A stretch of 64,000 bases of DNA. Source: Candidatus Spyradenecus sp. (GTDB lineage Bacteria; Verrucomicrobiota; Verrucomicrobiia; Opitutales; UBA953). The notes beneath the pieces are model-generated. The model was given only the letters and a program-made list of their open reading frames with translations. It was not told the DNA's origin and ran no database searches. Both the position numbers and the translations under genes were made by a program. Positions 723-64,000 of this stretch are shown here, one piece after another; positions within the stretch are counted from its first letter, which is position 1; the number at the start of each line of letters is the position of its first letter. The stretch covers positions 64,001-128,000 of the forward strand of contig JAZSKX010000018.1 of NCBI GenBank assembly GCA_045535075.1, in the 5' to 3' direction.

Positions 723-1745
723 ATGAAAACTTTCGCTACCCTACTTCTCTGCCTTGTCGTTCCCGCGTTTGCTTCGGCAGAGAAAATCGTCGTTATTGCA
801 GGATCCGATTTCCAAGGAAAAACCGATTCCCGAGGAGCCAAAACCGTTGAAAAAATTCTCGGACAAATTTACGCCGCCGGCCACCGCGATGTTGACGGCG
901 TTCTTTTCTGCGGAGATTACACGGTAAAACTCAACAATCGTCCGAGTGAGAGCGAAAGCGGGATTGCAATGCTTAAAAAGGCGCTTCTTTCAGCGCGTCT
1001 CGGCATTGAAGCGCACGAGCTTGTTCTGCTTCAAGGCAACCACGATCCCGTCGGGACAAAAGGCATTTCGCCGAGCGGAGCGAACGATCCCGCGCATCGG
1101 CGCTACGGCGTTTTTGTCATCAACGAAGATGATTACATGTGGTTTCAAGGGAAGCGCCCCACCGACGGGAACGCGGACATTGCCGACGACGAAGCAACCG
1201 TCAGGCAGACAGCCGAAAGACTTGATTCGTATTTAAATAAAAAATACAAAGAGAAATTCCCGGCACCGATTTTCGTCTGCTCCCACCTTCCGCTTCACTA
1301 TTCCATGCGAACCTATCACGACGGCGACGCTCGCTACGCCAAATACATTTTTGACGTGATGAATCGCCACGCCAAACGCGGGCTAAAGCTTTTTTTCCTC
1401 TACGGACACAACCATTCGCAAGGCTGGGATAATTACCTCGGCGGCGGGCGCGTTTTTCTTGAGCCCGGAGAAAAAATCCCTGTCGCCGTTCCCGCAGACC
1501 GCAAACGTTGCACGCTTGAAACGCTTGCCTTCATGTATATGAATGCCGGATACACAACTTACGTAAGTACAACCGACCCGAATGACGGCGCCGACCGCAC
1601 ATTGAGTATGAGCGTCTTTGAAATTGACCGCCACGGGAACGTCGCAATCAAACGCTATTCTCCGGACGGTTCCCCTTCGCTGAAAGCCCCCGGAGTTCCC
1701 AACACACGCGACGACAATTTGGAGCGCAGGCTCGGGCTCTACTAA
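723..1745 (+). CDS. Secreted calcineurin-like metallophosphoesterase
   Basis: Signal peptide; motifs GSDFQ, CGDY, GNHD, SH and YGHNH. Confidence 0.8.
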   Translation: MKTFATLLLCLVVPAFASAEKIVVIAGSDFQGKTDSRGAKTVEKILGQIYAAGHRDVDGVLFCGDYTVKLNNRPSESESGIAMLKKALLSARLGIEAHELVLLQGNHDPVGTKGISPSGANDPAHRRYGVFVINEDDYMWFQGKRPTDGNADIADDEATVRQTAERLDSYLNKKYKEKFPAPIFVCSHLPLHYSMRTYHDGDARYAKYIFDVMNRHAKRGLKLFFLYGHNHSQGWDNYLGGGRVFLEPGEKIPVAVPADRKRCTLETLAFMYMNAGYTTYVSTTDPNDGADRTLSMSVFEIDRHGNVAIKRYSPDGSPSLKAPGVPNTRDDNLERRLGLY

Positions 1746-1761
1746 AAATCCGAACGGAAAA

Positions 1762-2742
1762 TCAGCGCTTCCTTCGGCGAAAAATTGCGAGCGACAAAAC
1801 AAGCGTTCCCGCGAATAATCCGAATACGGAAGGCTCCGGAATAGGATAAAATTTTCCGACGGAAAGCATTGAAAAATCCTGGATACGGGCCGAATATCCG
1901 CCTTCATCCGTGAGGTAAAGCCCGTCAGATCCGGTTTCTACAGCAAATTCGCCCAAGCGAATCTCACCGTCGTCGGAGTCCGTCAGGTAAATCTTCGTAA
2001 CCAATCCGACGGCGTCGAAGTCGCATCCCCACGCAGTCAGCGCGTGCTTGTATTCGTCTCCGTCAGCGTCCTTCAGATAAACATTGAGCCCGACAACGGC
2101 TTCAAGATTTTCAAAGCTGTTAATCAATAAGTTCGAAAAGCCTCGGATGTCGGCAAACGTTTGAGCCGTATTTTGATGCGTGAATGAAAATAATCGGAAA
2201 TCTCCGCCGCTCAGCGTTCCCGCGCTCGGATAGATATTTTTGAAAAAACCGCCGGATTCCGGCCCGCCGAAGCACTCGGACCATCTCCAATCCGTCGGAT
2301 AAGCGCTAAAAAACTCTCCGGTCAAATACCACGGAATTCCGTATTCGGCGGAACCGCCAAGATCCGTCCAATTTCCGACAAAATGCTCAAAAATCTGATA
2401 TTGTCGCCTTGTCGCGCTTTCGCGTCCGGGCGTATAGCCGTTCGGCGTTCCCGCGGAGATTTTATTTCCTGCTGCGAGATAAGCGTTTTGCCAATACTGA
2501 AGCATGTTTGAGGACTGCGCCGCCCAGCACAAATTTGCATCCGTCCTTGAGTTTGCGCCTCCCGCACCGCCCACGGCAACGGCATCTTCCCATGAATACG
2601 GCACATGAGCTTTGTTCGCGTCCAGCCACCCGCCGGATTCGGAAACGCCGGGAGCCCAAGCCGAACCGACGGTTTCCCCAAATGCTAAAGAAGTACAAAC
2701 GGTCAGCGAAGCGATCAAAGCAGAGTATCGGGCAATAAACAT
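1762..2742 (-). CDS. IdeS/Mac-like cysteine peptidase with PEP-CTERM sorting domain
   Basis: Motifs GWLDANK, DANLCWAAQSSNMLQYW and HALTAWGCDFD...IYLTDSDD; C-terminal IPEPS, hydrophobic helix and RRRKR. Confidence 0.8.
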   Translation of the reverse strand: MFIARYSALIASLTVCTSLAFGETVGSAWAPGVSESGGWLDANKAHVPYSWEDAVAVGGAGGANSRTDANLCWAAQSSNMLQYWQNAYLAAGNKISAGTPNGYTPGRESATRRQYQIFEHFVGNWTDLGGSAEYGIPWYLTGEFFSAYPTDWRWSECFGGPESGGFFKNIYPSAGTLSGGDFRLFSFTHQNTAQTFADIRGFSNLLINSFENLEAVVGLNVYLKDADGDEYKHALTAWGCDFDAVGLVTKIYLTDSDDGEIRLGEFAVETGSDGLYLTDEGGYSARIQDFSMLSVGKFYPIPEPSVFGLFAGTLVLSLAIFRRRKR

Positions 2743-61808: not shown

Positions 61809-61844
61809 AGACTTATTCTTTCACGAGAGTTTACACTATCAAAA

Positions 61845-64000
61845 TTAATAAGTGAAGCGGAAGCCGACGTTCCCGCGGTGAGAAATGTCGGAGTTCATTC
61901 CGAGATCTACCGTATAGTTGAGGAAGAGCCCCGTGTTTTCCGAAAGCGTAAAATCGAACGACGCACCGACCGAAACCGCGTCTTCCGGAAGTGCTTTTTC
62001 CGTAATCCTGCGGGAATACGCAACTCCGGTCGCTCCGACATCGGCATCCACCTCATCGTCGAGGAATTCGTGCGAATAAGCGAGGTCCAAGCCGAAGCGC
62101 GTCGGCATTTCTCCGATCGCGAAGCTATAGCTGGAACCGATACCGATGCGTGCGCGCAAGCTGTCCGCATTGAAGCTATCCGTCGTCATCGAACGCGTTC
62201 CCGTTTCTTCAATCTTTTCAACGGCGGTGTGGAGATAGGAGAGCCCGACGTAAGGCGTGAGGTAGAGATTTTCGACGGAAGTCGGAATCACGCCTCCCGC
62301 ATTCGCGAAGAGACCGGCACTCCAACCGTCGGTATCACCCTTGTTGTTCCCGTAATCGCCGCAGCGTTCGACTTCGTACGAAGCGAATCCGAAATGCGCA
62401 CCGCCTTCCGCGAAGTAGTAGTCATTGAAGACCGTTCCCGCGTAAATGGTAGCACGATAGCTGTCCATCGAGATTTCGCCTTGGTTGTCATGGATATCGG
62501 CAGTTCCGCGATCATACGCGAGAGCCATCCCGAAAACAGTCGATTCGCTCAGGCGGACGTCCCCGCCGACGAGCGCACCATAGGTCGAGAAGTCAAATAC
62601 CGCCGAGTCAGAACGATCCGAGCCGTTTTCAACCGACATCGATTGCGCCTGCGCAAAGAACTGCCACTCGTCCTTGTTGCTCAAGGTCTCGAACCGGCGC
62701 TGTTCCATGCGGCGATGCAAGCTTTGGACATCCTGATTGAATACTTCCGTGGGCATCGCCACCATCGCGGCGTAAGCAAGATTCATGTCCGGAGAAACCG
62801 GGCTCAAAGAAAGATGCCCGACACGGGAGTCGTAAACGTATTTAACTTCCGTTCCGTCTGCCATAATAACCGTCACGGATTCGACATCGCCGGAAATATC
62901 CGCTGCCGAACCGTCGCGATAAACGAATTCGATTTCCGGAACCTCCCATGCGCTTCGAATCGATTCATCGAGCGTAACTTCAACCGCCACATTGTCCAGT
63001 GAAACGGACGCGTCGTTCGTTAGCGAAATACGCGGAGTTTCGGCATCCTTAACGGATTCGATATCAAAGCAAATCAATGCACCGTTCCCGCCGTCCGTCG
63101 GCGTAATCGAGATGTCTTCAAGCACGACCGAACCGGATTTATTCGCCGCCGCAACAAAACCGCCGACGCGCAACTGCGTTCCCGCGTCAAGAGTTTGCGA
63201 AGCACGCGATTGCATTCCGTAAGCAAGCGCCATGTCTTGAGCCGCAAAAAGCGAAATCACGCTGTTGCCTTCGACAGACAAACCGCCGTTCGCATTCCAA
63301 ACCCCTCCATTGTTCAAAACAACCGAACCGGATTCGACCTTGAAGAAATCGGAAGTATTCAATGTCGTCTTATCCGAGACACTCAAGATCCCGCCGAATC
63401 GTTTTTCCGCACTCTGCCAGTTGAGAACGCCGCCGCCGATTGCGGAAAGGCTTCCGCTTCCGCGAATAACCTTGTTAAGCGTTTCCGTTTTTCCTGCGAC
63501 CGTTTTCAATTCAAGCACGGCATCTTCAGAATCCAGAAGCACTTGGGCAGACTTTCCGAGCGAAGCCAACGAAACCGCACGAAGCACGCCGCTCTTGACA
63601 GTTACCATTCCCGTAAAGTCATTTGAAGGATTAGAAATCTCCAATCGCCCTTCTCCGACTTTCGTAAATGCTCCTTCTCCGGAAATCAATGCGGTAATCG
63701 ATGAATTTTCCGCCGAGCCGACGCGAATTTCGGCATCTTTTCCGAGAATGAGAGATGCCTTTTCGTTCCCGACAGCATCGCCCTTTTCAGCCACAAGGGT
63801 CGAACCGGACTTGAGATCGAAACAACCCTCAAAATCTGCGGACGAACCGGATAGCGTCATCGCAATTCCCAAGCCGGTTTCGACGGAAATCGTTCCCGCG
63901 CCCTCAAAAGATCCCGAGAACACATCGGCAACCGTTTGCCCGGAAGCCGGCGTCAATTCAAACATCAAGTTTCCGTTTTCGCCTTCAAATGCGATTGTCC
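61845..64000 (-). CDS. Autotransporter (5' part beyond the window)
   Basis: Passenger repeats (ISGEGAFTKVGEGRL..N.FTG) and a C-terminal beta-barrel ending VGFRFTY. Confidence 0.88.
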   Translation of the reverse strand, partial: TIAFEGENGNLMFELTPASGQTVADVFSGSFEGAGTISVETGLGIAMTLSGSSADFEGCFDLKSGSTLVAEKGDAVGNEKASLILGKDAEIRVGSAENSSITALISGEGAFTKVGEGRLEISNPSNDFTGMVTVKSGVLRAVSLASLGKSAQVLLDSEDAVLELKTVAGKTETLNKVIRGSGSLSAIGGGVLNWQSAEKRFGGILSVSDKTTLNTSDFFKVESGSVVLNNGGVWNANGGLSVEGNSVISLFAAQDMALAYGMQSRASQTLDAGTQLRVGGFVAAANKSGSVVLEDISITPTDGGNGALICFDIESVKDAETPRISLTNDASVSLDNVAVEVTLDESIRSAWEVPEIEFVYRDGSAADISGDVESVTVIMADGTEVKYVYDSRVGHLSLSPVSPDMNLAYAAMVAMPTEVFNQDVQSLHRRMEQRRFETLSNKDEWQFFAQAQSMSVENGSDRSDSAVFDFSTYGALVGGDVRLSESTVFGMALAYDRGTADIHDNQGEISMDSYRATIYAGTVFNDYYFAEGGAHFGFASYEVERCGDYGNNKGDTDGWSAGLFANAGGVIPTSVENLYLTPYVGLSYLHTAVEKIEETGTRSMTTDSFNADSLRARIGIGSSYSFAIGEMPTRFGLDLAYSHEFLDDEVDADVGATGVAYSRRITEKALPEDAVSVGASFDFTLSENTGLFLNYTVDLGMNSDISHRGNVGFRFTY

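Follow-up and report, generated by a model that had tools for sequence, protein, structure and literature searches.

Why does one short, asymmetric word recur every few hundred bases along a bacterial genome, within and between genes and equally on both strands? The question is raised by a stretch of 64,000 nucleotides (G000:C5:64001-128000; the window in what follows) of genome G000, a 1,949,087-bp assembly of 18 contigs with 52% G+C. G000 is one of 19 genomes of the genus Candidatus Spyradosoma, which the NCBI taxonomy places in Verrucomicrobiota, class Opitutia. The word is the octamer CGGGAACG (complement, CGTTCCCG), and wherever it could be tested it behaves as a DNA uptake sequence does. 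We regard it, with a confidence that stands about midway between doubt and acceptance, as the DNA-uptake-sequence analogue of the genus, and we infer that the uptake machinery is its reader.

Abundance of the word and null models

The window contains 178 exact matches to CGGGAACG/CGTTCCCG on both strands (758..63898), as against a mean of 6.44 for CGGGAACG (standard deviation 2.41, maximum 13) in 100 dinucleotide-preserving shuffles of the same DNA. The copies are divided equally between the strands (89 +, 89 -; 44 + and 40 - in the first 32 kb), and 103 of the 178 carry an additional 5' G, giving the 9-mer GCGGGAACG. The initial annotation, made from the letters of the window, had tallied 170-180 copies, 41 vs 43 by orientation in the first half, and a frequent extension to GCGGGAACG; the exact counts confirm the observation. 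In the whole of G000 there are 5159 copies (2527 +, 2632 -), that is, one per 378 bp or 2.65 per kb, and 2.1% of all bases belong to a copy. CGGGAACG is the most frequent octamer of the genome, in which the median octamer count is 34 and Markov models of order 0-3 predict 69 to 588 copies of the word.

Coding and intergenic copies were counted on 1524 gene calls based on open reading frames (ORFs) and codon usage, covering 89% of the genome; these counts are approximate, the calls omitting short genes and mis-calling at least three. The density of CGGGAACG is 2.53 per kb within genes, which hold 85% of the copies, and 3.59 per kb between genes, and at least one copy is present in 1258 of the 1524 genes and in 769 of the 818 genes of at least 900 nt. 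Shuffling of synonymous codons within each gene (20 shuffles), which preserves each protein and the codon usage of each gene, gave 312 +/- 15 copies on the sense strand vs 2633 observed (8.4x), and 180 +/- 12 on the antisense strand vs 1765 observed (9.8x). The word exceeds the shuffled level in all six frames (4.2 to 13.9-fold), and the peptides that it encodes (AGT/TGT, xVPA, RER, xGNx, RSR, xFP) confirm those from which the initial annotation had argued that no single codon-pair effect is at work; the enrichment survives this codon-aware null 8-10-fold. Intergenic DNA holds 751 copies, compared with 10.4 in order-1 simulations. Because the excess is almost the same on the sense as on the antisense strand, the signal must be one of duplex DNA rather than of RNA or protein.

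An oriented logo of 5158 copies revealed information in the flanks only at positions -3 to -1 and +1 ([C/T][G/A]CGGGAACG[C]); farther out the flanks are flat except for the three-base beat of coding DNA, and CGGGAACG is thus a word and not part of a longer repeat element. Neither the flanks, uninformative more than 3 bases out, nor the large intragenic share of copies resembles repetitive extragenic palindromic (REP) elements or miniature inverted-repeat transposable elements (MITEs). Single-letter variants are enriched only at 3' positions (position 8, G>A 10x and G>T 6x; position 6, A>G 6x), with no enrichment in G000 at positions 1-3 and 5. Even spacing was considered and rejected, since the gaps between copies are no more regular than random: they are approximately exponential (coefficient of variation 1.10), and 42 exceed 2 kb where 24 were expected.

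Over 88 windows of 20 kb, 53.6% of the copies are in the + orientation at positive GC skew and 44.1% at negative GC skew. So weak a skew is expected, because the word has 4 G and 2 C and its orientation tracks the gene strand, and it is nowhere near the behaviour of Chi sites or of FtsK-orienting polar sequences (KOPS). Sequences of the latter kind, which impart chromosome architecture, show a very strong skew that switches at the terminus. The test of strand skew that the initial annotation had named as able to overturn its idea has therefore left the idea standing.

Distribution in the genus and its relatives

CGGGAACG is enriched in all 19 genomes of Ca. Spyradosoma (Opitutales), in which it is present in 552 to 7777 copies. 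Fifteen genomes are rich in the word (5159-7777 copies) and four are poor in it, namely G001, G002 and G013, with about 1350 copies each, and G014, with 552. In the richest species there is about one copy per 230-250 bp, which by arithmetic amounts to ~3.3% of the genome. In four sister genera of the same family (62 genomes) the count per genome is 30-383, the level of the reversed-word control, and in twelve genomes of other families in the order the 9-mer GCGGGAACG is likewise at control level. The comparison with related genomes thus confines the word to one genus, to all examined genomes of which it is common. The same word is found at loci of 52% to 63% G+C, so composition is not its cause.

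Another octamer, CGGGTACG, which is the most frequent in a 100-kb sample of the sister genus g14 (63 copies), was tried as a dialect of the word and rejected, its genome-wide count (163 in 2.3 Mb) being background. Its scarcity in word-rich genomes (1-26 copies vs 50-100 for the control) was also dismissed as a sign of drive, since GTAC is generally avoided (observed/expected ratio, O/E, 0.55).

Contig L018 (CAZPYE010000041.1), titled 'uncultured Enterobacteriaceae bacterium', encodes an NrdD protein 87% identical to that of the window, carries the word at 2.81 per kb and most likely belongs to Ca. Spyradosoma, judging by these two features. Contigs with at least half of the sampled words of window positions 20001-30000 were found in 14 public runs, most of them metagenomes of gut or faeces (sheep, goat and others); all or part of that segment is present in 20 runs from 11 studies, and long pieces from four runs differ from the window by ~1%. 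Within-species polymorphism was examined in the first 40 of 514 differing places, none of which lies in the 18 word copies (4.5 kb) where 1.3 were expected; this comparison is underpowered and was not used.

Maintenance and decay of word sites

Synteny among the genomes is too limited for following the evolution of sites, as only nrdD-nrdG aligns between the window and five related Spyradosoma loci, and single genes were therefore fetched from each genome. The three genes of the window on which the analysis draws are as follows.

21637..23931, + strand: priA, with 8 word copies; several sites are genus-wide and have one-letter decayed forms in the four low-density genomes
24553..26760, + strand: nrdD, with 2 word copies only in 2.2 kb (25572-25579 + and 26388-26395 -)
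28115..29974, - strand: glnS, with 8 word copies

A tree of PriA and an RpoC fragment was built for 18 genomes (G017, with a split gene, was left out of the tree and of the site comparisons). G008 and G009, both word-rich, form the most divergent pair, on one side of the midpoint root, and G000 clusters with three word-poor genomes, G001, G002 and G013 (support 80/96). Two changes between the word-rich and word-poor states are needed on the best tree and on 200/200 bootstrap trees; strongly supported branches force only one.

Aligned by codon, priA, glnS and the rpoC fragment contain many sites at which nearly all species, G008 and G009 included, have the word, and at such shared sites the word-poor genomes have one-letter variants. 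In priA and the rpoC fragment taken together, the sites of G000 are intact in 67 of 126 comparisons with 13 other word-rich species (12.5 expected from other 8-mers in the same codon phase), and in 4 of 39 comparisons with the four word-poor species (5.8 expected); comparisons between related species are not independent trials. Third-codon identity of priA between G000 and other clades is 0.43-0.50 (0.38 for G008), that is, near saturation. These alignments argue that the word is actively held in 15 genomes and is drifting freely, and so decaying, in four, which on the best tree represent two lineages.

Two genes of the window bear on how sites arise and move. The window nrdD (with nrdG, 24553-27245) shows 71-77% protein identity to most of the Bacteroidales orthologues listed, and nrdD-nrdG probably entered the genus long ago from Bacteroidales. 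At both word sites of nrdD the Bacteroidales genes have near-matches that differ by one to three letters, which points to an origin of these word copies by point change. The DNA of glnS is 97-98.7% identical to that of G010, G007 and G016, genomes whose priA is about 69-70% identical. With G016 the identity is 98.7% over 1.74 kb (0.97 at third positions), against third-position identities of 0.47 in priA and 0.53 in the rpoC fragment, and the glnS flanks are unalignable. Near-identity of glnS beside such diverged genes indicates that a piece the size of one gene was recently exchanged between distant species of the genus. An exchange of this kind, as read from the alignments, fits transformation and is no proof of it.

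Inverted pairs of the word at gene ends

Adjacent copies are arranged far from randomly. At start-to-start distances of at most 20 bases, 136 pairs have the order CGTTCCCG..CGGGAACG and 15 the opposite order, with 28-29 in each direct order; the distances of inverted pairs peak at 20. Of the 164 inverted pairs at a distance of at most 24, 58 are flanked by convergent genes, 76 by co-directional and 3 by divergent ones, and the remaining 27 fall within gene calls; 134 are downstream of at least one gene end. A-runs precede the pairs and T-runs follow them. Five pairs of the window fold at -22 to -29 kcal/mol (z -4.5 to -8), with no shuffled sequence equally stable:

4769..4794: CGTTCCCG-N10-CGGGAACG, just downstream of the minus-strand gene for cytochrome bd subunit II (4816-5871); terminator-like, -25.2 kcal/mol, z -6.8
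10084..10105: inverted pair between two plus-strand genes; A6 upstream, T6 downstream, -22.4 kcal/mol
15181..15206: inverted pair between the convergent hisD (13643-15154, +) and 15224-16309 (-); A9 upstream, T7 downstream, -28.9 kcal/mol
42128..42156: inverted pair with T7 downstream, folding at -22.6 kcal/mol
46466..46491: inverted pair just downstream of a minus-strand ORF ending at 46511, below rpsB; -22.1 kcal/mol

By their order, flanks and folding, the inverted CGTTCCCG..CGGGAACG pairs look like bidirectional intrinsic terminators in which the word and its complement form the arms. The pair at 10084..10105 has the longest stem (16 pairs) among the terminator-like sites in a scan of window positions 1-20000, and that at 15181..15206, between two converging genes, has the look of a terminator working in both directions. 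The initial annotation had compared the word with uptake sequences that are paired in terminators, and the excess of one pair order together with the A/T-flanked hairpins upholds the comparison; the available text of 10.1101/2025.10.24.684340 describes the same use of inverted pairs for the DNA uptake sequence (DUS) of Neisseriaceae and the uptake signal sequence (USS) of Pasteurellaceae.

At one of these hairpins (window 15170-15213) contigs from other strains break off, show small indels or continue in other loci. Near-identical hairpins distributed over the whole genome seem, from this pattern, to break short-read assemblies.

Prophages, phages and other word-poor DNA

Two Mu-like elements of G000 (G000:C16:184641-221508 and G000:C8:22803-35120) carry 0.54 and 0.41 copies per kb. 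They encode a Gam-like protein, transposase A/B-like proteins, terminase, portal, head protease and a DNA methyltransferase; both are prophages or remnants, with a word density five-fold below that of the genome. Among the viral contigs listed, only one phage, represented by two contigs with terminase, portal, tail and baseplate genes, clearly belongs to this genus, and it has 1.6-1.7 copies per kb, structural genes included; 21 distant relatives of its terminase contain no copy. For USS, the available portion of PMC6776037 describes a variable degree of accumulation in temperate phages of Pasteurellaceae and a low content in large lytic phages.

Hairpin matches in other viral contigs were set aside as mostly single chance hairpins (median 0.28 per kb in at least 80 loci). 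Viral contigs L275 (6272-8874) and L290 (1200-3637), of 32-33% G+C, have 8-12 copies in 2.5 kb, nearly all on one strand and unlike the dispersed pattern of Ca. Spyradosoma.

Within G000, the ribosomal-protein operon (0.84 per kb) and rpoB-rpoC (1.13 per kb) are among the poorest 5-kb windows. A gene for a 1609-aa helicase-like protein (G000:C5:229513-234342; 43% G+C) has no copies amid word-rich genes and was probably acquired recently, as its composition and neighbourhood suggest. The genome also strongly avoids several short sites (O/E of 0.17 for GGCC, 0.40 for CTAG, 0.51 for GATC, 0.55 for GTAC and 0.25 for CTCGAG), which points to restriction pressure.

Pilus and competence genes

Machinery genes were assigned in G000 with NCBIfam profiles. 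Just upstream of the window, contig 5 carries a cluster encoding two PilB/GspE ATPases, PilT (435 bits, cut-off 319), PilC/GspF and RecD2, in which the PilB-PilT-PilB-PilC genes (G000:C5:25804-35683) lie two genes, with purD between, from recD2. A second cluster encodes a PilM-like protein (Amuc_1101 family), an Amuc_1100-like protein and a secretin of the Amuc_1098 family. DprA is present, as is ComEC. Seven N-methyl pilin-like genes were identified, four beside ruvX and recJ and three elsewhere; the pilins of the four-gene cassette (G000:C1:259100-266264) give weak, sub-threshold matches to 'Verru_Chthon cassette' families, and NCBIfam matches to prepilin-peptidase-dependent pilins span only the N-terminal helix. 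Pilus genes of G000 thus adjoin genes for DNA processing (ruvX, recJ, recD2).

One pilin-like gene lies in the window itself:

35026..35451, + strand: stand-alone pilin-like gene (141 aa) between hemA and a diacylglycerol kinase gene

Twelve homologues of its product were found, all at least 63% identical and one with a source name (Opitutales bacterium), and this range suggests a protein confined to the genus. A structural model built from 9 shallow sequences (predicted local distance difference test, pLDDT, 71.7) has the usual pilin shape. The protein is at most a candidate reader of the word.

Across the genus, ComEC is intact in all 19 genomes, each of which has at least seven pilin motifs, and the secretin is found in 18, being missing only from the word-rich G005 (92% complete). 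Seven genomes (G001, G002, G013, G014, G004, G018 and G012) possess a second secretin with four extra pilins (e.g., G013:C19:67270-74499), which G000 lacks, and an extra GspE-like ATPase accompanies them in the five of these that were searched (G001, G002, G013, G014 and G004). As a correlate of word density this second system was rejected, because G004, G018 and G012 are word-rich.

The uptake reading and its alternatives

If CGGGAACG is an uptake sequence, a retractile type IV pilus would bind word-bearing double-stranded DNA by means of a surface component, for which the seven pilin-like proteins are the likeliest candidates. This DNA would be drawn in through the secretin, and ComEC and DprA would hand the strand to recombination. 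Fragments of conspecific DNA with the word would be taken up more often than others, with the result that point mutations creating a copy would spread and those destroying one would be replaced, a molecular drive that could fill all places where coding tolerates the word. Between genes, the word and its complement would have been recruited as the two arms of bidirectional intrinsic terminators.

Several observations weigh against this reading. The ComEC of G000 is short (570 aa), with a competence domain and a weak DUF4131 match, and no beta-lactamase domain was seen in it. ComEA was not found in G000, in which helix-hairpin-helix matches are limited to an 805-aa Tex-like frame. A Pfam search at E<=0.05 (in a database that we take to include a ComP model) gave no domain beyond N_methyl in any of the seven pilins. 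The model of the window pilin, considered as a ComP-like receptor, had no PDB match at E<=0.001, its best pilin match being FimU (E 0.13) with no ComP. The competence genes by which the initial annotation had proposed to judge its idea were thus found in part: two PilB, PilT, PilC, PilM, the secretin, seven pilins, ComEC and DprA are there, and ComEA and a ComP-like protein were not found.

The four word-poor genomes add a further difficulty, for in all of them ComEC, the secretin, DprA, PilB and PilT are intact and 4 T2SSE ATPases are present. Six pilins fetched from G001, G002 and G013 gave unbroken alignments of 80-91% identity to G000, one in G002 being cut by a contig end; the stand-alone pilin of the window was compared, among the word-poor genomes, in G002 only. 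A loss of competence genes was therefore rejected as the cause of decay for ComEC, the secretin, the N-methyl pilins, the T2SSE ATPases, DprA and six of the seven pilins, and loss of the word in these lineages finds no explanation in a loss of the genes tested. With the apparatus intact, either the drive stopped through some subtler change or the word has a different reader; such a change could have affected receptor specificity, regulation or the amount of recombination in word-poor populations. Samples of 50-81 kb from the four word-poor genomes contained no replacement word that might represent a dialect, nor did samples of 28-100 kb from the four sister genera. With one copy per 230-380 bp, the word is about three times as dense as any known DUS or USS. 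To our knowledge, the genus has no cultured member and is represented by metagenome-assembled genomes only. The presence of RecC, considered below, belongs to the same account.

The strongest alternative is that CGGGAACG is a genome-wide mark for another DNA-binding machine unrelated to uptake, for instance a nucleoid protein, a repair or recombination loader or the self/non-self discriminator of a defence system, and that it is kept by selection or biased gene conversion. Maintenance at the level of DNA in 15 species, with decay in four whose tested competence genes are all intact, would follow naturally from such a mark, and a density above that of known uptake sequences, together with the failure to find ComEA or a ComP-like receptor, points the same way. 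However, no candidate reader was identified, and neither a nucleoid nor a defence reader specifically predicts the hallmarks of DUS and USS that the word shows, namely balanced orientation, terminator pairs, restriction to one genus, depletion in prophages and accumulation in the phage contigs; we consider it possible, though on the whole unlikely. Its more particular form, a mark of an undescribed Verrucomicrobiota reader concerned with self-identity or chromosome handling and switched off in two lineages that kept the pilus, ComEC and DprA, is about as unlikely. A second alternative is a Chi-like signal at which RecBCD switches from degradation to recombination, so that self DNA is marked and protected. 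G000 encodes RecC (199 bits) and a PD-(D/E)XK nuclease domain in a 1107-aa frame, and the word is an asymmetric octamer enriched in the core genome; two Mu-like prophages that encode a Gam-like RecBCD inhibitor have less of it, and a phage contig in whose 15 kb no Gam was seen has more of it than they do. The contrast between phages, however, comprises three elements only. Known Chi sites are strongly co-oriented with replication and occur once per several kb, whereas the replichore skew of CGGGAACG is weak (about 54-56%) and one copy per 378 bp is about ten times the density of any known Chi of 7-8 letters. No Chi site is known to serve as a terminator arm, and RecC is intact in the low-density genomes too, for which reason its loss was rejected as the cause of decay. 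A Chi-like function therefore appears improbable.

The word might instead have neither reader nor function and be the by-product of a methyltransferase, of very-short-patch repair or of some other mutational bias. HIP1, the highly iterated palindrome of cyanobacteria, is linked to orphan methyltransferases in the available text of PMC4390886, and the avoidance of GGCC, CTAG, GATC and CTCGAG in G000 indicates that modification systems shape this genome. Yet no methyltransferase or Vsr family tracks the word across the 19 genomes, which bears on the last of the refuting conditions named in the initial annotation: N6_Mtase has no match in four of the 15 word-rich genomes, and N6_N4_Mtase none in three of them, G000 included, and both are present in low-density genomes; Vsr occurs in one genome of the 19; and a C5 methylase has no match in G009 (7762 copies) and three in G014 (552 copies). 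Moreover, the word is not palindromic, and a contiguous asymmetric methylase target of 8 bp would be unusual, so that we rate this explanation as rather improbable. Least credible of all is a codon, dipeptide or repeat-element artefact. Two frames do dominate, AGT/TGT with 1493 copies and the antisense frame xVPA with 1184, but the 4-14-fold excess in six frames under a protein-preserving shuffle, the intergenic excess (751 vs 10), the uninformative flanks beyond +/-3 bases and the sister genera, which have similar proteins without the word, have already refuted it. The transformation uptake signal of the initial annotation remains an inference and its interpretation as a whole is partly supported, whereas its broader wording, 'another drive-maintained word', is fully supported.

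Significance

Sequence-specific self-recognition in DNA uptake is known only from two proteobacterial families, Neisseriaceae and Pasteurellaceae, in the available text of 10.1101/2025.10.24.684340. We found no description of CGGGAACG as a genomic signal, the string being used in unrelated contexts (e.g., primers) among the matches listed. Searches on natural transformation in Verrucomicrobia or Akkermansia and on surveys of uptake sequences returned no uptake sequence for Verrucomicrobia, and the literature on Spyradosoma consists, by title, of taxonomic or community surveys only. In the literature found, no uptake sequence is described for Verrucomicrobiota, and CGGGAACG is denser than any known one.

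If the uptake reading is true, the word would be a third, independent case of self-recognition in uptake, in an uncultured gut genus of another phylum, and the densest such word yet seen (2-3% of the genome), with no ComP-like receptor found; uptake tags would then be a general outcome of transformation and not a proteobacterial oddity. Confirmed uptake would also make the addition of the word to DNA an obvious route to genetic access. The genus offers a natural experiment, with the word held in 15 species and decaying in four, and this contrast can point to the receptor or to another maintainer; were the reader unrelated to uptake, the same contrast within one genus would let comparative genomics find it. 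CGGGAACG is, in addition, a strong marker for binning and host assignment of the genus and its phages.

Comparison with known systems

Of the known genomic words, HIP1 resembles CGGGAACG as a hyper-abundant octamer running through the genes of one lineage; HIP1 is palindromic and linked to orphan methyltransferases, whereas CGGGAACG is asymmetric and follows no methyltransferase family. With Chi it shares an asymmetric 8-bp form, over-representation in the core genome and the presence of RecC, and it differs in its weak replichore skew, far higher density and use as terminator arms.

The resemblance to uptake sequences is closer. Like the USS of Pasteurellaceae, CGGGAACG has the genomic hallmarks of such sequences and an intermediate, variable density in temperate phages (PMC6776037, available portion). 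Unlike the USS, it shows no AT-rich, helically phased flank, with only 3 bases 5' and 1 base 3' being informative. The predicted USS receptor is the minor pilin ComN/PpdA, as given in the available portion of PMC12616744. From the DUS of Neisseriaceae it differs in its phylum (Verrucomicrobiota), in the word itself, which is unrelated, in a core of 8 bp instead of 10-12, and in a density about three times higher, reaching 2.1% of G000 and ~3.3% of the richest species; the sequences termed DUES cover 'up to ~2%' in the available text of 10.1101/2025.10.24.684340. It differs further in that the DUS is read by the minor pilin ComP and a ComP-like domain was seen in none of the G000 pilins, nor such a fold in the one modelled, and in that no dialects were found. 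Nevertheless, CGGGAACG is like the DUS in being (i) short, non-palindromic and hyper-abundant in both orientations, within as well as between genes; (ii) paired in terminators, common to related species, scarcer in foreign DNA and conserved above background (for the background on DUS, see the available text of 10.1101/2025.10.24.684340); and (iii) carried by hosts that possess a type IV pilus with PilT, ComEC and DprA.

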